Assembly: GCA_965213685.1 (NCBI GenBank)
Contig: CBDBZY010000063.1
Location: forward strand, 1-26,335
DNA: 26,335 nt
Origin: a bacterium
Lineage (GTDB): Bacteria; UBA8248
Direction: 5' to 3'
Shown here piece by piece: positions 13,009 through 26,002 of this stretch. The translations under genes were made by a program, and so were the position numbers. The notes beneath the pieces were generated by a model. It was not told where the DNA came from and did not search any database. It saw only the letters and a program-made list of their open reading frames with translations. Within the stretch, counting starts at the first letter, position 1; each line of letters starts with the position of its first letter.

Positions 13009-16148
<3,140 letters not shown>

Positions 16149-16149
<1 letters not shown>

Positions 16150-16634
16150 CACAGGACAAACCGGGCGCGCTCGCGGCGGAGCATTTCATAGGGGTTCATG
16201 CAACACAGGCCGAGACGGTCGCAAGCGTTCGGAATCTTGATTTTGTGGATGGTGTCAGCGAAGACTTCGTGGGTGACGACGGCACAGTCAAGAGCCAGCG
16301 CGTGCGCGACAAGAAAGCAATCGGCACCCCTTAGAAAGGTGTCGACGGCGGCCGACTTGTATTCATTGCCGTTCGCCCAATCGCTGACGGCGCGAAGCTT
16401 CGAAACCACGGCCTCGTCCGGCTTCAGAAAGAACCCGTCGCCCCGCTCCGCGGCCCACTTCGCCAGTTCGTCGTTTCCCTCTTGCAGTTCGCCCAAGACC
16501 TCCTCGACGCTGGCGACGGTGCCCGCGCCGTTCTGCTCGACCAGCCAATCCCAGAAGGCGGGGCAGAAATCGAAGCCGTAGTGCCGGTTCTTGGCCTGAA
16601 TGAACACGTTCGCGTCGATGAGATAGGCGGTCAT
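16149..16634 (-). CDS. DUF4411 family PIN-like domain protein
   Basis: [31 protein letters not shown]...[22 protein letters not shown]; ATGA overlap with the upstream gene. Confidence 0.88.
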
Positions 16635-17788
16635 TCCATCACCCCGACTTCGCGCCCGATATTGTTGAAGGTCTCGGTCTTCTTGACGCCCAACATCCGG
16701 AACGCATCCCGATAGAGGGTCCGCCCTTCGAGCGTGCTCACGACCAGTGCGCGCGCGAACCGCCGCCCGACCCGTGCGACCGTCGTGCGATAGAAGTCGC
16801 CGCCCGCGCGGCGCGCCTTGACGAGCTTCCGCAGACGTTCGTTCTCTTGTGCCCATTCTTTGTCAAAACGAGCGCGGGTGATCCGGCCCGCATCGAGCAG
16901 GCGGCGCAATATGACCAGCGTGCTGACCTTGTAGAGGCCCGCCAGTCGGGGCAGCGCGTCCGGCGGCGATTCGTTCGGTTGCAGATCGGATCGCAAGGCT
17001 TCCAGCGGCACCAGAAACTCCGCTGCCACCGCGTTGCACCACACCTCCTCGCGCCGGAAGCCCGACGCCGGCGCCGCGCCGAGATTCGACAGAGCGGACA
17101 CGCCAAGCCAGATATGCGCAAGCTCATGGGCGAGCGTGAACATCTGCGCCGCTTTCGTGTCCGCGCCGTTGACGAAGATTAGCGGTGCGAGGGGATCCGG
17201 CAGGGCGAAACCGCGAAACTCCTCGGGATTGAGACGGCGGCGGTTGTTGTTTGCTACCACGCCATTGATCATGACGAGGACGCCGGCCTCCTCGGCCTGG
17301 CGGATAAACGGGCGAAGGGCGTCGGGCCCCGTCGAGTGCTTCCGGCGGGCGGCCAGATCGAAACCCAAAACCTCTCGCATATCGGCCGCGACAGTTTCAG
17401 GGGATGTCTTGGTCGAGGTGCTGCCGACGAAGCCGAGAGCCGGCTCGCCGGCGGCACGAGCGAAATCCCGATACCAGCTCTGCCGTTCCTGGCAGGCGTA
17501 GATCGTGTCCAGCAAGTCCGGGCTGGGCCGCGTGACCGCGTGTCCGGCGAGGGTGCGGAAGTCCGGAATGGGAAGGGCTTCCTCCGGCGGTTCCGAGAGG
17601 AACAGGTAACCGATTGGCACATGGACCGCGCGCGCAAACGCCTCCAATTGCTTCAGGGTGGGCTGGACGTCGCCGTTCTCCCATTCGGGCAGTTTTTTGA
17701 ATTTTTTCGCCGCCAGAGATTCTTGCCGGATGTCGGCGCGCTCGCGCGCCCAGCGGAGAAGATCGGGATTGACGGGGACGCGGATCAT
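16631..17788 (-). CDS. XRE HTH fused to ImmA/IrrE-family metallopeptidase
   Basis: N-terminal LLRWARER..WENGDVQPTLKQLEAFA; FRGFAL..IFVNGADTKAAQMFTLAHELAH (HExxH); CNAVAAEFLVP. Confidence 0.92.
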   Translation of the reverse strand: MIRVPVNPDLLRWARERADIRQESLAAKKFKKLPEWENGDVQPTLKQLEAFARAVHVPIGYLFLSEPPEEALPIPDFRTLAGHAVTRPSPDLLDTIYACQERQSWYRDFARAAGEPALGFVGSTSTKTSPETVAADMREVLGFDLAARRKHSTGPDALRPFIRQAEEAGVLVMINGVVANNNRRRLNPEEFRGFALPDPLAPLIFVNGADTKAAQMFTLAHELAHIWLGVSALSNLGAAPASGFRREEVWCNAVAAEFLVPLEALRSDLQPNESPPDALPRLAGLYKVSTLVILRRLLDAGRITRARFDKEWAQENERLRKLVKARRAGGDFYRTTVARVGRRFARALVVSTLEGRTLYRDAFRMLGVKKTETFNNIGREVGVME

Positions 17789-18624
17789 GGACGCTCTCCC
17801 GCCAGGTTCGCCAGAGCGGCCTTCAGGACTTGGAAGCAGACTTTGGCGGTGTGTTCATCCGGCGCAAAGCCCGAGATCATCTGCTCGTGTGGGTGGATGT
17901 AGTTTCGGAAATTGCGCAAGCCGTGCCCGAACTGCTTGATGTCGGGCTTCAGAACGCCGACTTCGTCAGCAACGTCGATCAACTGCGCAAGGCTCCATTC
18001 ATGGAAGGGTTTCGGCGATTCTTTCGCTTTCGCTGTTTTCGGCGTCGCATTCGCCTGATTGAAGCGCGCTGGATCCTGCCTGGCTACGCCAAGCAGCAAA
18101 GCTTCCAACACGCTGCCGCACAGGAATATCACGGACAAATGAGCACCTGCGTCAAGCACGACGCACGCCTCCTTAATCCGTGCTTCGATTATTGGCACGA
18201 CCTGCGCGTCAATCGGCATTTTTTGAATTTTCGGAACCGCGAACTCGCGCGCCAGAAACTCGGCTTCGGTCGTGGCGGGGCGAGGGACGGCAGATTGACC
18301 GGTCAGCCGTGCGACGATGCCGCGCGCCTTTTCCAGCAATTTCTTGTCCGGGTCCTTCTTTGCGAGGTCGCAGTATGTCTCATAGGAGTCCAGCATCTCG
18401 GACAGCACCTTGCCTACCAGATCGTCGGGTTCCAATGTCCAAAACGCACGGAGCTTTTTCGCCTTTGACGTTCCATAAGTCTTATATTTTTGCCCGTGGA
18501 CGTCGACCTTGTATTTAAGAAAAAAATCGCCAAACGTAGCGTCCGTGAAGTCGAGAACATAGCCGCCGCTCATTTCGAGGAGTTCTTCGAGGTAGCGCTT
18601 ATCGCTACTCGTCAACGAACTCAT
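17785..18624 (-). CDS. Putative defence protein: Abi-associated N-terminal domain plus HEPN-like C-terminal domain
   Basis: N-term MSGGYVLDFTD..GTSKAKKLRAFW; C-term CGSVLEALL..WSLAQLID..LRNFRNYIHP (R-x-H HEPN-type motif); lower GC; coupled ATGA overlaps on both sides. Confidence 0.65.
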   Translation of the reverse strand: MSSLTSSDKRYLEELLEMSGGYVLDFTDATFGDFFLKYKVDVHGQKYKTYGTSKAKKLRAFWTLEPDDLVGKVLSEMLDSYETYCDLAKKDPDKKLLEKARGIVARLTGQSAVPRPATTEAEFLAREFAVPKIQKMPIDAQVVPIIEARIKEACVVLDAGAHLSVIFLCGSVLEALLLGVARQDPARFNQANATPKTAKAKESPKPFHEWSLAQLIDVADEVGVLKPDIKQFGHGLRNFRNYIHPHEQMISGFAPDEHTAKVCFQVLKAALANLAGERP

Positions 18625-19830
18625 GAGATCACCTCCCCCGCCTCGGCGAGGCGGATTTCGCCCGAGATGAGTTTTGGAAGGAGGAGGTCGCGGGCCTCGG
18701 AGAGCGTAAGGCTTTCATTAGAATGAAGCCTGAATTGCTCGAAGAGGGGTCCAACCACCTTCTCAAAGGCCACTGCCACATCAGAACCAGATGCCGGAAA
18801 CGGTATCGCTTTCAGGTTTTTCTGGTTCAGCTTTGGTTGAACGGTGCCGGTAACGTATGGAGTTATGTCTGTTTGTTGAAGGAAACACAACAACATCTCA
18901 TTCGAGATGCCTTTTCCCCTGAGAACATGAGCATGGTTGTTTGCCCAGAATTGACCCCAAACATATTGCGTAAAGGGTTTTCCGTCCGGTTTGGTGACCG
19001 ATCCATCTTCGCCGAGTAGGATGTGAACTCCTTCAAACAAGTAGTCCTCTACGTAATCTATCACTCCGGCCGCGCCATGATATGGATAGGGCCCTTGGCG
19101 TTGCTCGCGTTCTCGGGATGATAGCGGGATGCGTTTAGAATCGAGGATTTCGATCTGATCCCCTAGCAGCGAAACCTCCCACCCCGCCGGCTTGCCCGCA
19201 TCGTCCAGTGTGTCGGGAAAGAGCTCCCAGAGTTCGGGGGCGAGGTAGGGGGGGCGGCCCTCCATCTTGGCGCGGGTGGGGCCGAAATCCACGAACCAGT
19301 CCCGGAAGATCGCCCGCGCCATCTCCTCCAGCGTCTCGTTCATCCGCCGGTTCAGGTCGATCTTGTCGTCCAGTGTGCCCAGCACGTGTGCGATGGCGCG
19401 TTGTTCGGGGAGAGGGGGAAGAAGTATTCCGTGGCGTGCCGAATAATCCCACTTTGCTCGGGGCATGCGTGTTCCTTCAGACCCGGAGACTGAATGTTCG
19501 ATGAATTGCGGCGAGGCCACACAGTAGTGAAGAAATCTCTGATCTATGCCTTCCTTGGCACGGATGACCCAAATGTCGGTTGAACAAATACCATTGAATG
19601 GCGCCTCGATAACCTTGCGAAAGTATGGCCGGAGCTTTCCGAACAAAGTATCGCCCTTCTTGAAGCGTGACTTCGTACTCGTCACATCACTTGCTTGCCC
19701 ATGCTTGAGTAGGGATAAGGTGTTTTCTCCAATATGCTCAAGGCCGATATAGAGCATGTTCTCTGCATCAGATGGAGATACTGTTTCGCGGATTAAATCC
19801 GCGCACTCTTCAAGCGTTACCTCCTCCCAC

Positions 19831-19838
<8 letters not shown>
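18621..19838 (-). CDS. hsdS: Type I restriction specificity subunit
   Basis: Two low-GC TRDs separated by a high-GC conserved spacer ([42 protein letters not shown]); C-term [14 protein letters not shown]; ATG 19838 overlaps the hsdM end. Confidence 0.94.
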
Positions 19839-21380
<1,542 letters not shown>

Positions 21381-22162
21381 GTGGTCCTTGCCCGTTGTTC
21401 TCCGACGAAGACGCAGGTGCCCCTCTCCGCTCCGCGAATTGCGCTGCGGGCCGGGTCGATGCAGCTCCGGCAGCGAGAGGTCGCTCGCCTTCAGCGTAGC
21501 CGACGCTGCCCGGCAGAGCAATATATGGCGGGTGGTTCGCGGGAAGGCCGCAAGCGGTGCCGAATCGATGCGACGCCTGTGGTCAGGACGGACGCCCTCC
21601 ATCCCTGGGACCCGGTGCTTCTCGGCTAGCACATCCGCCGCAATCACCCGGCGTATCGCTACATGCGCGACGGGGATGGCGACGCCCCGCTCCGATGCCG
21701 TGTATCCATGAAACCAGACAGGCTCGACGAGGCCGTCCTGGCCCTTCTCTATCGAGGATGGATATTGCGGTATGACAAATGAGACGTCGCTCGCGACAGC
21801 CAAGTCTTGCGGAACGTCTGCTGCCGAAGCCCACTTCGTCATCCAGGCTGGCGAGGTTGAGTTCCCTGACGATCAACTCAAGGAGCTTCGTTCGAAGATC
21901 CTCGCCGTTGCTCCACGACTCAAAACGGATTTCGTCGTTTTCGAGGCGGTTCCAGATTTCGTCCGTAGCGGGACCCGGGATACCCCCGAACCAGCCGGCC
22001 AGCAACAAGTCGGCGCGGGTCGTTCCGCGTTGCCGGTGCGGAATGGTGCGCTTCGCATAACCGCGGCCGACCTGCGGAAAGCGCTGCTCGATACCCTCTG
22101 GTTCGAATCCGCGCACAATGTCCACGAACGGTCGACCACTTCCGGTGGGAGGAAGCTCGCGC

Positions 22163-22277
22163 GGGTCGCCCGGGCGCAGATAGCGCGCGCGCCCGTCCTC
22201 GAGGCGGAATGGCACTTGGCCATTCTTCACCCCGGCCACCTCCGCAGTCTGGCTGTTGACGAGGCCGAGGCCGGCGC
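22163..22277 (-). pseudogene. Fragment resembling the helicase region of a conjugative relaxase (MobF/TrwC-TraI type)
   Basis: AGLGLVNSQTAEVAGVKNGQVPFRLEDGRARYLRPGDP, recalled as similar to the segment just before the final helicase motifs of such relaxases. Confidence 0.45.
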
Positions 22278-22330
22278 CGTGTTCCCGCTCTTCGACTGAA
22301 CGGAATGAACAAGGAGACGTCTGCTTTGAT

Positions 22331-22768
22331 CTATGACCGCAGAATGTTGGGAAGCCACCTCCAGAGCCTCTTGGTCGCTCCCTTTCGGGCGGATTCCTCA
22401 GTCCGCTGGAAAGCGATCGCACGCTCTCCGTAGTACCTCTCCTTCAATCTGCGCTCCTGTGTGCGGCCAGCGGTGATTCTGCTAGCTGGCCATTGCCTCG
22501 CCCATCTCACCGTGCTCTCGCTTATCCAGTAGTGCGATCGGCACTCGAAGCTCCAGTTCCCGATCGACGGGTTCAGAGAAATCGACACGCCATCGTAGAT
22601 AAGGGTCCAGTCCGTGGGAGTCAGTGGTGTCACGACATCACGTCCGCATCCGCAGCAGCACTTGTGCACCACCGTCGCGTAGTTCACGGACACATAGAGC
22701 GTCCGCTCTTTGAGATCGTTTGGAATAGTCTTGACGAATTCGTGTGCGAGAACCATCGGCCACTTCAT
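22331..22768 (-). CDS. DUF6527 family Cys/His-rich protein
   Basis: HKCCCGCGRDVVTPL..W..SLNPSIGNWSFECRSHYWI; ATGA overlap with the E2-E1 gene. Confidence 0.85.
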   Translation of the reverse strand: MKWPMVLAHEFVKTIPNDLKERTLYVSVNYATVVHKCCCGCGRDVVTPLTPTDWTLIYDGVSISLNPSIGNWSFECRSHYWISESTVRWARQWPASRITAGRTQERRLKERYYGERAIAFQRTEESARKGATKRLWRWLPNILRS

Positions 22769-23946
22769 GCGTTGTCCTCATTGACGATCGCGTTGCCATC
22801 CAACGTGTACGCGCTGAAATGCTCGTTCTCCAAGTCCCGGTAGAACCCGCGCAGTTTCTTCCATTTGATCACGGCCAAAGCGGCGTTCAGCGCGTTCAAC
22901 TCGGCAATCTGAATGTTCTGGGAATACACGCCGTCCGCATCGCCACCGGACAGCCCGATTCGTTTCTTGTCCCGCACGTGGTCGCGTTTGTCTGGTGTGC
23001 TGGCAGTTACCCGCACGACGCCCTGGAGCCGGTTATCGACGAGTTCGAGTCCCATCCCTACGTCGATGAACGGGATATCGAGTTCCTCTAACTTTTCGAT
23101 GACGGGCCGTTTCGCCTCGCCTCGGTCCACGCATATGAACGCGAAGTCCATCCCCTCAATAGCGTCCAGATTGCCCTCACCGAGATAGCAGTCATGCTCC
23201 ACAATTCCGCTTCGCATGAGGCTATAGCGGCCGGCATGATGGCGAACCTTTCGCGGACGCGCCTCGAGCTCTTCCTTGGACGGCGCGCCCGGGGAGCGGA
23301 ACGCGTTGTGCTGGAGGAAGTCGTCCCCGTCGAAGACATGGATTTCCCGCACGGGGGTCTTGGCCACCAAATCAAGTATGTACGAGCCCGTCCCGCCCAA
23401 TCCGACGATCGCAACCCGGTCCCGCTCCAGATTGCTTGACAGCGCCGCGATTCCCGCCCGGCTCGAGGCGGTGTCGAGGTATTTGAACACCGCCTTGGGA
23501 TCGTCCGGCTCTATCTCCCGGCGGGGTCGCGCCGTCACGTTTGGATCGATGGCTTCTGCGGGACCCGCGATGATGGCGATATAGGTCGTCATCTTGTGGT
23601 GATAGTCCGTGTACCCATCGGCAGGCTTGCTCGAGAACGAGTGGTCAACCGCCAGACCATCGGAGATCTTCTCCTGAACACTCTTGTGTTTGATCTTCGC
23701 GAGTTCACACCCGTTCCGATCGCAGGGGTACTCACCCGCGAACATGGCTACATGGGTCCTCGGCCGGGTTGTAACGTCTCCCGCCAGATCCAGCGTCGAT
23801 ACCAGGGCGCCCAGCTTCACCTGCCCACTGGAATTGACGTAAGGCACGTGGCGGATGACGAGGTGCCCCGACACGATGGCGACGTCGTACCCTTCATCCG
23901 CCAGCTTCTTGAGGTCGGGCCTACGACTTATCAGTGACTGTGACAT
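22765..23946 (-). CDS. ThiF/E1-like adenylyltransferase with N-terminal E2-like (DUF6791) domain
   Basis: N-term LVIRHVPYVN..GEYPCD..HSFSSKP..YTDYHHKMTTY; ThiF VAIVGLGGTGSYILD, FDGD, FICVD, FIDVGMG, ELNALNAALAV. Confidence 0.88.
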   Translation of the reverse strand: MSQSLISRRPDLKKLADEGYDVAIVSGHLVIRHVPYVNSSGQVKLGALVSTLDLAGDVTTRPRTHVAMFAGEYPCDRNGCELAKIKHKSVQEKISDGLAVDHSFSSKPADGYTDYHHKMTTYIAIIAGPAEAIDPNVTARPRREIEPDDPKAVFKYLDTASSRAGIAALSSNLERDRVAIVGLGGTGSYILDLVAKTPVREIHVFDGDDFLQHNAFRSPGAPSKEELEARPRKVRHHAGRYSLMRSGIVEHDCYLGEGNLDAIEGMDFAFICVDRGEAKRPVIEKLEELDIPFIDVGMGLELVDNRLQGVVRVTASTPDKRDHVRDKKRIGLSGGDADGVYSQNIQIAELNALNAALAVIKWKKLRGFYRDLENEHFSAYTLDGNAIVNEDNA

Positions 23947-24220
23947 TAATAACCGTGCCGTCCCGCAGCTTCACCGCTTCGCCCTCGATCAGAATGCCTT
24001 CCGGCTTGCGGCCACCAGCTTTCCGATAGATGATCGTGAAGCAGATGAACTCGCCGGTGGGCGGGTCTTCGAATGCCAGAGCGACAACCCGGTCGAAAGT
24101 CAGCTCTTCGTCCTCGACCGTTTTTTCCCGGCCGTTGACGACGATTGAAAAACCCTTTTCGTTAGGGTGCCCGTGATCCTTGTCGCCATGTTCGGGATTA
24201 TGCTCACGATCGCGCTTCAT
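23921..24220 (-). CDS. Ubiquitin-like (multiubiquitin-domain, beta-grasp) protein
   Basis: His-rich disordered N-term, then FSIVVNGREKTV..LTFDRVVALAF..TIIY..GILIEGEAVKLRDGTVINVTVTDKS; AGGGAG RBS. Confidence 0.82.
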   Translation of the reverse strand: MKRDREHNPEHGDKDHGHPNEKGFSIVVNGREKTVEDEELTFDRVVALAFEDPPTGEFICFTIIYRKAGGRKPEGILIEGEAVKLRDGTVINVTVTDKS

Positions 24221-24236
24221 GCGATGGACTCCCTTC

Positions 24237-24470
24237 TCAGCCCTTGGGCGGATAGGGGTCGCCGCCGTGGCTGTCGCTGCCGGCGATCCGTCCGTCCCTG
24301 TTGTGAATGCGAAGCTCGGTTCCCTGGTTACGGCTCACCGCGCGGCCTCTGTCGATGGCCGCCTGCTTCGTCGCGTGGTGGCTACTGGCGCGCCGCGCGC
24401 CGCCGCGTTTGACGTCCCAGCCCCCGCCCGGGTTCCGAACGATATGGTGGGTTTTGGGTCCCTTTCCCAT
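24237..24470 (-). CDS. DUF2188 domain protein
   Basis: HHIVRNPGGGWDVKRGGARRAS..TKQAAIDRGR..ELRIHNRDGRI..DSHGGDPYPPKG; AAGGAG RBS. Confidence 0.88.
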   Translation of the reverse strand: MGKGPKTHHIVRNPGGGWDVKRGGARRASSHHATKQAAIDRGRAVSRNQGTELRIHNRDGRIAGSDSHGGDPYPPKG

Positions 24471-24500
24471 GGTCAATCTCCTTGTAGTCAAGCGTTGCGT

Positions 24501-24537
24501 ATTGTACAGTTTGACGAATTCGTCGTGGCCTCGGCCA
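24501..24537. promoter_or_regulatory. Divergent control region with candidate operator palindromes
   Basis: Minus-strand TACAAT at 24501-24506; perfect palindrome GACGAATTCGTC at 24513-24524; TGGCC-TC-GGCCA at 24526-24537. Confidence 0.5.
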
Positions 24538-24596
24538 AGAAAATGCCCGCTGCACGGCCGTGCCGAAATCGTTATAGAGGAGTATACGATTTCGTG

Positions 24597-24959
24597 ATGG
24601 ACGAGTCAAGTACGCCAACAGAGCTGTTTCCGCAGAGGCTGCGAACCGCACGAATGGCGCGCAATCTGAGCCAGAGCGAGCTTGCCCGGCGGGCGGACCT
24701 ACAAGCATCTGCAGTTTCCCAGTTTGAAACGGGCACTCGCAAGCCTTCTTTCGACAATCTCAAGCGCTTGGCCGACGCTCTGCGAGTGACAACCGACTAT
24801 CTGCTCGGCCGCTCCGGTCTGATGGATGCCGCAGCCGCCACCGTCGACAAGCTCCATCGGCACTATTCCGGCCTCTCGGCCGAGTATCAGGAGATGGCCG
24901 ACGATTTCGTCCAGATGTTGGCCGAGAAAGCCAGGCGGAAGGCGAGGGAGGGCGAGTAG
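24597..24959 (+). CDS. XRE-family HTH transcriptional regulator (CapH/ImmR-like)
   Basis: RLRTARMARNLSQSELARRADLQASAVSQFETGTRKPSFDNLKRLADALRVTTDYLLGR; AGAGGAG RBS (start could be GTG 24594). Confidence 0.92.
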   Translation: MDESSTPTELFPQRLRTARMARNLSQSELARRADLQASAVSQFETGTRKPSFDNLKRLADALRVTTDYLLGRSGLMDAAAATVDKLHRHYSGLSAEYQEMADDFVQMLAEKARRKAREGE

Positions 24960-25836
24960 GTGGGGCGACCCCGAGATCAATTTTTCAAAGTGCGTCAAGA
25001 GGCGGAACAGCTCCTCCGGGAACTCCGGATCGACGCTCTGCCGATCGATCCATTTGCGATTGCGCATCAACTCGACATCGAACTGAAGCCGCTCCCCGCT
25101 TCCGCTGGCGGGGCCTCAGGCATGCTGCTCCACGTAGACGGCGTATTCGGCATTGGATATCCGACCCACATCAACAATCAGGGCTTCAGGAGATTCTCCG
25201 TGGCCCATGAGATTGGGCACTACAGGTTGCCCGGACACATCGATGCCGTCTTGGATGACCGGGACCAGCATTTTTCCAAAGCCGGGTTTCGCAGCACCGA
25301 TCGCTACGAGCAGGAGGCGGACCAATTCGCCTCGGCATTGCTCATGCCTGCCAAGCTTTTCGCTGCTGCCGCAGGTTGCGCCGGCGATGGTCTCCAGGCG
25401 ATCGAGACGCTCCAAGCGACATGCGAAACGTCTCTTGAGGCTACGGCCATCCGATACGCACAAACCAGCCGTGAGCCCGTGGCGGTAATCCGAAGCAGCG
25501 GCAGCATTATCGACTACGCGGTCATGTCGAACCCTTTGAGGGATTTCCCGGGGCTCGCCTGGATTCGAAAGGGCACGCCATTGCCCTCCGCCAGCGCGAC
25601 CGCTCAGTTCAACGCCGATGTGGAGAACATCGTCCGAGGTCGGCGCGCCGAAGGTCAAAGTTGCCTTCGGGACTGGTTTCAACGGGCTGCGTCGACAGGA
25701 GATTGTGGAAGAAATCGTCGGACTGGGCAGCTACGGCAAGGTTCTGACCGTGCTTACCGGGATGGAACCTCCCGACGAGTTTGAGGACGAAGAAACCGAC
25801 TTAGAAGAGTCGTGGGAAGTGCGCTTTCGTCGATGA
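24960..25836 (+). pseudogene. ImmA/IrrE-family metallopeptidase (CapP-like), +1 frameshift near the C-terminus (or sequencing error)
   Basis: LPIDPFAIA, RRFSVAHEIGH (HExxH), EQEADQFASALLMP, SLEATAIRY; removing one T at 25677-25679 gives DWFNGLRRQEIVEE...VRFRR, 291 aa. Confidence 0.88.
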
Positions 25837-26002
25837 TTCGGCCCTGTCTACCCGCCGTTCCCACCCGTCGATTCGGAATCGGAACCCCACCCGAAAGCGA
25901 TCGTCCTCGCCTGCCGCTGTTGGAGCAGCACGCACCAATTGTCAAACTGCGCGACGCGCGCGACAGCCGGGGACTCCGTTGCGGACAATACACTACGTTT
26001 GT

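Follow-up and report, generated by a model that had tools for sequence, protein, structure and literature searches.

An Intact Type II Bub Operon Headed by a DUF2188 Gene and Placed Behind a Predicted CapH/CapP-Type DNA-Damage Switch

Gene Content of the Locus

The window analyzed in this work is the entire contig CBDBZY010000063.1 (26,335 nucleotides, nt), and the element in question is a run of four minus-strand genes near its end, namely the three genes of a bacterial ubiquitin-like tagging system of the Bub family and a small gene of the DUF2188 family at their head. An initial annotation, made from the sequence alone, had described four packed or overlapping genes at this position, and this arrangement was confirmed with the list of open reading frames (ORFs) and with gene-by-gene profile searches, in which a Pfam family was found for each of the four genes, far above the curated cut-offs in every case. 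The genes are the following (aa, amino acids; E, expectation value):

22331..22768, minus strand: bubE, DUF6527 protein of 145 aa (Pfam PF20137, E 1.1e-23)
22765..23946, minus strand: bubBD, E2-E1 fusion of 393 aa (Pfam DUF6791 at residues 10-159, E 7e-58, and ThiF at residues 171-298, E 1.8e-9)
23921..24220, minus strand: bubA, ubiquitin-like protein of 99 aa with one beta-grasp domain (Pfam Multi_ubiq, E 2.3e-14)
24237..24470, minus strand: DUF2188 leader gene, 77 aa (Pfam PF09954, E 5.9e-22; PADLOC PDC-S16, E 1.9e-33)

The start of the DUF2188 gene was placed at an ATG with a Shine-Dalgarno sequence, and the use of an alternative TTG would give an ORF at 24237-24491. The ORFs of bubE and bubBD overlap by 4 nt and those of bubBD and bubA by 26 nt, and the DUF2188 gene lies 16 nt upstream of bubA. 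Three of the products had already been characterized correctly: the small basic DUF2188 protein (77 aa, PF09954, isoelectric point 11.5), the beta-grasp ubiquitin-like protein (Ubl), recognized both by Multi_ubiq and by its alignment to the BubA crystal structure 9cd2, and the E2-like/ThiF fusion, whose intact GLGGTGS motif is found at residues 182-188 of the 393-aa protein.

No family match to a JAB/JAMM peptidase was obtained among the seven ORFs scanned with Pfam around the operon. Likewise, no SMODS/CD-NTase family was present in the Bub operon or its flanks, and neither rhodanese nor biosynthetic or peptide-precursor genes were found near it. The search for related loci returned 43 loci, 41 of them with Bub genes and two (L042 and L043) matching the ThiF part only. 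BubA was detected in 38 and BubE in 40 of these 41 loci, and both the order bubA-bubBD-bubE and the 26-nt overlap between bubA and bubBD recur across them.

The combination of Multi_ubiq, DUF6791-ThiF and DUF6527 without a JAB peptidase is the published Type II Bub set, and the three genes were therefore assigned to Type II Bub. Hence, the four-gene stretch minus DUF2188 is a Type II Bub operon (formerly 6E.2/DUF6527) encoding BubA, BubBD, and BubE, and it is an intact representative of a ubiquitin-like tagging system of bacteria that has been described before, situated behind a predicted DNA-damage switch. The prototype of the type is the BubA/BubBD/BubE operon of Escherichia coli ZDHYS365 (Ye, Gong, Chambers and Corbett, 10.1101/2024.11.21.623953), and the "6E/DUF6527" operons were renamed Bub in two linked preprints from the Corbett laboratory (10.1101/2024.11.21.623953; Gong et al., 10.1101/2024.11.21.623966). 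The initial annotation had noted that Ubl/E2-E1/DUF6527 operons were known from bioinformatics, which holds for the operon type, but its remark that no mechanism was established is outdated, since the family has been named and biochemically described. Its proposal that the four genes form one conjugation operon stood for the Ubl, E2-E1 and DUF6527 genes with no JAB peptidase, but not for the DUF2188 gene, which goes with the CapH/CapP-type switch rather than with Bub. A full-text literature search returned no mention of DUF6791.

Conserved Residues and Predicted Structures of the Bub Proteins

The alignment of BubBD comprised 38 full-length proteins, the truncated L002, L003, L038, and L039 as well as L042 being left out. 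The window protein is 45-59% identical to most of the relatives found and 74-87% identical to the nearest ones. Its E2-like domain corresponds to residues 1-160, with H65, S105, and K107, and its adenylation domain to residues 162-393. Four residues of the former (H65, S105, K107, and P108, in the motif FSxKP) were invariant in 38/38 proteins, and so were the G182-G187 loop, D206, D208, R217, and Y341 of the crossover loop. Bub pathways have been reported to use a Tyr on the E1 crossover loop and a Ser on the E2, linked through oxyesters and not thioesters (10.1101/2024.11.21.623953; 10.1101/2024.11.21.623966), and in E. coli BubBD the mutation of each of S106, R219, and Y342 abolished conjugation (10.1101/2024.11.21.623953). 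S105, R217, and Y341 of the window lie one or two positions off these three residues, and all of the published catalytic residues appear from the alignment to be conserved here. A catalytic role had initially been suspected for the Cys of the motif GEYPC (residues 71-75). This suggestion was not borne out, given that C75 is kept in 37 of the 38 full-length proteins (it is a Tyr in L041), whereas the published catalytic residues are Ser and Tyr, here the invariant S105 and Y341.

The AlphaFold2 model of BubBD had a mean predicted local distance difference test (pLDDT) score of 84. The best solved match to this model was Citrobacter BubCD (Foldseek, E 3.7e-13), and the VIA-align comparison of both proteins gave a Z score of 23.0 and a root-mean-square deviation (rmsd) of 3.1 over 223 aligned residues, within residues 162-393. 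The next proteins in the list were MoeB (Z 21.4), Atg7, MccB (Z 21.0), and UBA5, with ThiF likewise similar. When the whole chain was compared with Cap2 (7to3), the Z score was 17.6 but the rmsd reached 14.9, so that this alignment lends loose support to the predicted E2-E1 layout. The N-terminal domain was modeled as a helix, a four-strand meander, a long loop holding S105, and a long helix, which is the order of elements of E2 enzymes. The sequence profile of residues 1-160 produced only a chance match against the PDB sequences (E 0.44) and did not reach Citrobacter BubB, and an hhalign comparison of this domain with a Cap2 protein returned a probability of 0.1. The structural comparison that had been proposed for each gene thus supported the E1 part, through Citrobacter BubCD, and BubA, through 9cd2, and yielded only the loose Cap2 alignment for the E2 part.

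BubA consists of one beta-grasp domain preceded by a His/acidic-rich N-terminal tail, and its C-terminus is ...NVTVTDKS. Residues 17-99 aligned to the crystal structure of E. coli Type II BubA (9cd2, E 1.3e-8), with which the end ...TDKS is shared, and a C-terminal Ser was observed in 39/39 relatives. In most relatives BubA has about 248 aa and three domains, and the clade of the window has a single-domain protein of about 99 aa with the His/acidic-rich tail.

BubE presents a C4 zinc site (C37, C39, C41, and C76) together with a Ser68/His79 dyad, and its C-terminal extension is basic. The six residues of the site and the dyad were invariant in the 21 sequences aligned and present in 40-41 of the 41 proteins of a wider set. 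Their equivalents reported for Citrobacter BubE are C57/C59/C61/C99, S92, and H102, with a spacing that matches that of the window protein (10.1101/2024.11.21.623953), and BubE has been described as a zinc-finger Ser-His protease that removes conjugates (10.1101/2024.11.21.623953; 10.1101/2024.11.21.623966). Accepted initially as a Cys/His-rich DUF6527 protein, the product does belong to this family (PF20137), but it is no orphan: by analogy with the homologues studied, it would be the zinc-finger Ser-His protease of the pathway, in the role that a JAB peptidase has elsewhere.

The CapH/CapP-Type Switch and Its Putative Operators

Upstream of the Bub operon, and divergent from it, a pair of genes was found that the initial annotation did not include. 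These genes and the elements recognized between them and the operon are the following:

24597..24959, plus strand: capH, XRE-type helix-turn-helix (HTH) repressor of about 120 aa (Pfam HTH_3, E 2e-15; PADLOC capH, E 1.3e-19)
24960..25836, plus strand: capP, IrrE/ImmA-type zinc metallopeptidase with a HEIGH motif (Pfam Peptidase_M78; PADLOC capP, E 4.5e-52)
24512..24525, no strand assigned: operator-like palindrome 1, TGACGAATTCGTCG, with a perfect core, located after the promoter-like site and before the DUF2188 start codon
24561..24574, no strand assigned: operator-like palindrome 2, imperfect, TAACGATTTCGGCA on the minus strand, just downstream of the -10 hexamer; alignment consensus TGACGATTTCGTCA
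24581..24609, minus strand: sigma-70-like promoter, TTGACT-17 nt-TATACT, reading into DUF2188-bubA-bubBD-bubE and overlapping the capH start on the other strand

The analysis with PADLOC, another of the checks proposed at the outset, matched capH, capP, and PDC-S16, but its E1-E2 profiles hit the nucleotide-binding stretch only (best E 4e-8). An association of this kind has been described before, CapH and CapP having been reported next to 168 of 544 Bub operons (10.1101/2024.11.21.623953).

The 126-bp intergenic region was aligned with those of five other cassettes, four of them linked to Bub and one (L068) linked to a cyclic-oligonucleotide-based antiphage signaling system (CBASS). Two 14-bp palindromes with the consensus TGACGAWTTCGTCA were kept in 6/6 regions, including that of the CBASS-linked cassette, and judging from this conservation they are putative CapH operators. 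The core GACGNNTNCGTC had four matches in the window, which correspond to three distinct sites because one palindrome is counted on both strands, against 0.49 expected. The capH region contains two of the three sites, and capH itself holds one of these, at 24900-24911. The promoter-like site agrees with the consensus at 10/12 positions and is the sole such site in 21800-25900. Since 1.1 sites are expected in that interval, the promoter match is weak on its own. Its -35 hexamer was present in all six aligned cassettes and its -10 hexamer in most of them.

Distribution and Features of the DUF2188 Leader

A profile search detected DUF2188 in five of the 41 related Bub loci (L001, L002, L004, L005, and L014), in each case between the regulator and bubA. 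A stand-alone divergent M78 peptidase is encoded in nine of the loci, namely these five together with L012, L013, L035, and L036, and DUF2188 was found in none of the remaining 32. In L005, the identity to the window was 75% for DUF2188, 59% for BubBD, 52% for BubA, and 47% for BubE.

When the window's phylum and a sample of 401 genomes of another class were queried with DUF2188, 15 further loci were obtained, none of which carries Bub genes. A Pfam scan was performed on 14 of them (L072, which mirrors L071, was left out), and an adjacent M78 peptidase was present in nine, seven of these with a Pfam HTH match as well. In L068, from a congener of the window's genome, a CapP-CapH-DUF2188 cassette heads a CBASS operon with CD-NTase and SAVED-2TM genes, and in L077 an M78-linked DUF2188 gene heads CD-NTase and Cap2. 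M78-linked DUF2188 genes also head pairs of unknown genes in L071, L073, L075, and L076; L071 to L073 look like one element in three genomes. In L069 there is no adjacent M78 gene, and DUF2188 occurs with an AAA ATPase, SMODS, and SAVED. The DUF2188 protein is conserved to an unusual degree: the best 120 clusters, from a total of 922 matches, were 77-92% identical to the window protein. The contigs of runs X1-X3 match the window on only one side of 24232 or 24278, where the DUF2188 gene has its 3' end, and beyond this point their sequence is unrelated. This departure at the end of the gene suggests that the cassette also occurs with other cargo in the same samples.

Two other arrangements were observed in this set. 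In L074 (7038-7611), two tandem DUF2188 genes lie beside GmrSD-family and PglZ genes with no HTH/M78 pair nearby. In L078 (5958-10444), the genes for an M78 peptidase and DUF2188 are followed by those for a 214-aa protein that Multi_ubiq matches weakly and for a 488-aa ThiF protein, as well as by two ORFs of unknown family, and this may be another ubiquitin-like operon behind a DUF2188 leader. Relatives of DUF2188 with 43-53% identity were also present in 32 records of temperate phages. One of them (L086, 3495-3719) belongs to the lysogeny module of the Streptococcus phage Javan264, and in a Mycobacterium prophage (L087, 2647-3240) the DUF2188 domain makes up the C-terminal portion of a protein annotated as an antitoxin, whose neighbor is a BrnT-like toxin.

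The association with CapH/CapP has a precedent, as operons with DUF2188 next to CapH/CapP, among them those of Tsuneonella and Extensimonas, are listed by Lau et al. (2022, 10.1101/2022.04.27.489752), who cite Burroughs and Aravind (2020) for the domain. No mention of DUF2188 was found in the main text of either Bub preprint, in two supplementary files of Ye et al. or in a 2026 paper on CapK/CapS, and no functional test of the family was found in the literature examined. Nevertheless, in part 2 of the 7 parts of Table S1 of Ye et al., 10 of the 21 rows with CapP and CapH skip gene numbers between CapH and the Ubl (one gene in six rows and two genes in four), the identity of the skipped genes not being given in the table. 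With about half of the rows in this part of the table having an unlisted gene before the Ubl, the DUF2188 element may, on the bolder reading set out below, be widespread and so far unremarked.

The PDC-S16 profile covers residues 3-77 of the DUF2188 protein with its positions 3-75 of 75. In the structural model (pLDDT 80), three strands precede a helix and two further strands, and the chain ends in a conserved tail modeled at low confidence, ...SDSHGxDPxPPKG. No match at E <= 0.001 was obtained for this model against PDB with Foldseek, and phmmer returned nothing below E 0.48 against the PDB sequences. The best VIA-align result was AcrIF5, with a Z score of 5.1, and no solved fold was convincing. 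In an Atlas search, the best score outside the protein's own family was 0.80, which was uninformative. A similarity to YegP/DUF1508 was also considered and received no clear support, with no Foldseek match and with 6q2z at rank 31 in VIA-align (Z 3.5, rmsd 7.6).

These results indicate that DUF2188 is not specific to Bub, and that it travels with damage-responsive repressor modules before varied defense cargo. It is likely to be a portable companion of the switch rather than a component of the Bub pathway. As to its activity, a damage-induced accessory that binds nucleic acid or protein is offered as a weak best guess.

Genomic Neighborhood and Mobility

The first part of the window (1-12.3 kb) contains housekeeping genes with 67-71% GC, and a defense island follows. 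The position beside a type I restriction-modification (R-M) operon, on which the initial annotation had relied, was verified, with HsdR, HsdS, and HsdM encoded directly downstream of the Bub operon:

13009-16152: hsdR, type I R-M
18621-19979: hsdS, type I R-M
19831 to about 21380: hsdM, type I R-M, split in two frames

The order in the island is hsdR, a DUF4411 gene, an HTH-M78 gene, an unknown ORF, hsdS, hsdM, a PDC-S68 fragment, the Bub operon, and capH/capP. The GC content of the last two is about 60%. The DUF4411 gene and the HTH-M78 gene, which is RmrA-like according to PADLOC, are placed inside the R-M operon, in the interval between hsdR and hsdS (16149-18624). The ORF after the HTH-M78 gene encodes 279 aa without a family match and falls in the stretch of lowest GC in the window (0.53).

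Between hsdM and bubE, the ORF at 21583-22422 matches only positions 737-856 of the 1221-position PADLOC profile PDC-S68 (E 3e-27), and from this partial match it looks like a remnant of a large defense gene. A contig from a related strain (run X4) skips most of 21562-22354. The split of hsdM occurs at a run of 14 G on the minus strand (20926-20939), which has 13 G in the contigs of run X1 and 12 G in those of run X2; by arithmetic, the 12-G form restores the frame. This tract may reflect either a phase-variable type I methylase or a homopolymer error, two explanations that are indistinguishable here because contigs, and not reads, were compared.

Within the window's phylum, a full-length BubBD relative (49% identical) was present in one of 50 other genomes sampled, and one further genome had the E1 part only. 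The nearest BubBD relatives (74-87% identical) are in Alphaproteobacteria, Pseudomonadales, and metagenome-assembled genomes of Binatia. Homologues were found in a further 126 plasmid records, and 95 of these plasmids are predicted to be mobilizable or conjugative; the Bub system is clearly mobile. In the window itself, no tRNA and no integrase was seen, and terminator-like sites were at chance level (three against 3.8 expected). The source assembly measures 7.97 Mb in 71 contigs and the 22 congeners listed measure 2.9-4.6 Mb, so that, despite a marker contamination of 3.7%, the bin may hold more than one genome.

Proposed Mode of Action and Alternative Explanations

The following sequence of events is modeled on the homologues that have been studied. 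CapH, bound to the two palindromes (TGACGAWTTCGTCA) around the promoter, would keep the operon off. Single-stranded DNA from damage or infection would then activate the metallopeptidase CapP, and CapH would be cleaved. DUF2188, bubA, bubBD, and bubE would be transcribed as one unit, with DUF2188 as an optional first cistron. The ThiF-type domain of BubBD would adenylate the C-terminal carboxylate of BubA (Ser99) by means of R217 and the GxGGTG loop, and BubA would pass as an oxyester to Tyr341 of the crossover loop and from there to Ser105 of the E2 domain, aided by K107 and H65, before being moved to a lysine of a target protein. BubE, through its zinc finger and Ser68/His79, would remove or limit the conjugates, as JAB peptidases do in CBASS and Bil. 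For the Type II homologue of E. coli, the formation of BubA conjugates was found to depend on ATP (10.1101/2024.11.21.623953), and conjugation of this kind through oxyesters has been reported for the E. coli and Citrobacter homologues only. By analogy with them, it is highly probable that the locus is a CapH/CapP-controlled Type II Bub operon that works in the same way.

Several observations weigh against this interpretation. BubA ends in Ser and not in the Gly that is usual for E1 substrates, although the active E. coli BubA ends likewise. The correspondence of S105 with E. coli S106 was made by position and invariance, and S50 of BubBD is invariant too. The E2 fold of residues 1-160 is predicted from the Pfam family DUF6791, the order of elements in the model, and the loose Cap2 alignment. 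In addition, capP contains one extra base near 25677, which divides it between frame 3 (24960-25784) and frame 1 (25678-25833) and, by comparison with relatives, moves the conserved last 50 or so residues into the other frame. This base is absent from the contigs of the three runs that cover the site (X1, X2, and X4; a fourth run has no coverage), and the assembled record therefore probably contains an error, or represents a minor variant, at this position. Finally, the Bub operons tried by Ye et al. (10.1101/2024.11.21.623953) gave no protection against phages, and a paper of June 2026 from the same group, which refers to the journal versions of the preprints (Gong et al. 2025; Ye et al. 2026), states that protection by any Bub operon is still not demonstrated. 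The antiphage or stress-response role proposed initially is therefore suggested by genomic context only.

The frameshift in capP leads to the question of whether the operon is a decaying relic that looks intact in an eroding locus and is no longer induced or functional. The split of hsdM at its G14 tract, the PDC-S68-like fragment between hsdM and bubE, and the related contig that skips most of 21562-22354 would fit such erosion. However, the four ORFs of the operon are full length and keep every catalytic residue, the extra base of capP is missing from the contigs of 3/3 covering runs, and the contigs of one run have a G tract shortened by two bases, which puts hsdM in frame, so that decay is very improbable. 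A ThiF/MoeB-type system for sulfur carriers or peptide modification (ThiS/MoaD or MccB), rather than protein conjugation, is hardly conceivable: the adenylation domain does resemble MoeB (Z 21.4), MccB (Z 21.0), and ThiF, and its crossover loop lacks a catalytic Cys, but the E1 shares its chain with an E2-like domain, the linkage to a dedicated protease is constant, the neighborhood has no rhodanese, biosynthetic or peptide-precursor genes, BubA ends in Ser instead of Gly-Gly, and the E. coli homologue makes ATP-dependent BubA conjugates.

The place of DUF2188 was the other matter to be weighed. The protein could be a working component of the pathway, as a target, as an adaptor of BubA, or as a chaperone of the single-domain BubA, so that the unit would be a four-gene variant of Bub. 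The gene lies only 16 nt upstream of bubA in one transcription unit, all five Bub loci with DUF2188 have a short single-domain BubA (95-101 aa), and the protein has conserved lysines and a conserved tail ending in ...PPKG. The 10 of 21 CapP and CapH rows that skip one or two genes before the Ubl in the part of Table S1 cited above, and the seven published cases of Ubls fused N-terminally to another small stress-protein domain, DUF1508/YegP, also agree with this possibility. Nevertheless, DUF2188 is missing from 36 of the 41 related Bub loci, the 15 other DUF2188 loci carry other cargo and no Bub genes, and L009 has a short BubA but no DUF2188. The link to the short BubA is confined to one clade and may therefore reflect common descent only. 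A role as a Bub component is accordingly considered improbable, and DUF2188 is preferred as a portable companion of the switch. A bolder extension of this preferred reading, put forward tentatively and judged rather unlikely, is that DUF2188 is a functional third element of the DNA-damage-responsive switches of the CapH/CapP type, a small basic protein under strong constraint that would be made first upon induction and act on a conserved cellular or phage partner. As such, it would either serve as a first-line effector of a general kind or modulate the switch, and where the Ubl of a Bub operon has a single domain it might be an adaptor or a target as well.

Relation to Known Systems

The Type II Bub family, its chemistry, and its linkage to CapH/CapP are already known, and the poorly understood piece is DUF2188. 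Type II Bub is a ubiquitin-like conjugation system that operates without any Cys. The copy described here is handy for its study, being compact, with a single-domain Ubl and its own predicted damage switch with a readable putative operator, and in its clade a DUF2188 gene has entered the space that separates the switch from the Ubl gene. Given that the same gene heads CBASS and other cargo behind a like switch, learning its contribution could inform many defense operons.

The operon shares with the E. coli Type II prototype the three genes and their order, the absence of a JAB peptidase, the E2 Ser with Lys and His, the crossover-loop Tyr, the adenylation Arg, the C4 site and Ser-His dyad of BubE, and the ...TDKS end of BubA. 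It differs in the BubA protein, which has one beta-grasp domain and the His/acidic-rich tail in the window and three domains in E. coli, and in the DUF2188 gene that precedes bubA. Type I Bub of Citrobacter has an E1 of the same kind, which gave the best structural match (Z 23.0), and it also relies on oxyester chemistry and on a BubE protease; by contrast, its Ubl is reported to be fused to the E2 and to end in Gly after cleavage, its JAB peptidase is fused to the E1, and its BubB is not detected with the profile of the window's E2 domain.

Type II CBASS resembles the window in its E2-E1 fusion on one chain and can also sit behind CapH/CapP. Nevertheless, Cap2 is described as using Cys thioesters, conjugating the CD-NTase and not a Ubl, and being paired with the JAB peptidase Cap3, whereas the window has neither CD-NTase nor JAB and its matches to the PADLOC E1-E2 profiles are limited to the nucleotide-binding stretch. 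Bil is likewise a Ubl conjugation operon in a defense context, and the separate E1 and E2 with catalytic Cys residues, the JAB peptidase, and the phage tail target reported for it have no counterpart in the window. The CapH/CapP module described by Lau et al. (2022, 10.1101/2022.04.27.489752) coincides with that of the window in the divergent HTH repressor and the M78/IrrE-type peptidase upstream of the operon; the operator sequence of the window is proposed in this work, and the activation of CapP by single-stranded DNA and the cleavage of CapH would follow by analogy. As for the PDC-S16/DUF2188 leaders, the window protein matches the profile over its full length and its gene lies behind a CapH/CapP-like pair, a position known from the Tsuneonella and Extensimonas operons, and the difference is in the cargo, which is a Bub operon in the window.

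A different arrangement upstream of Type II Bub was observed in L018 (1740-5195) and about 20 similar loci. These operons are of a Rhizobiales type with a three-domain Ubl, and they are preceded by a gene on the same strand whose 1152-aa product joins an M78 peptidase to a UvrD helicase and a PD-(D/E)XK nuclease. This fusion could be a damage sensor or regulator in one protein.

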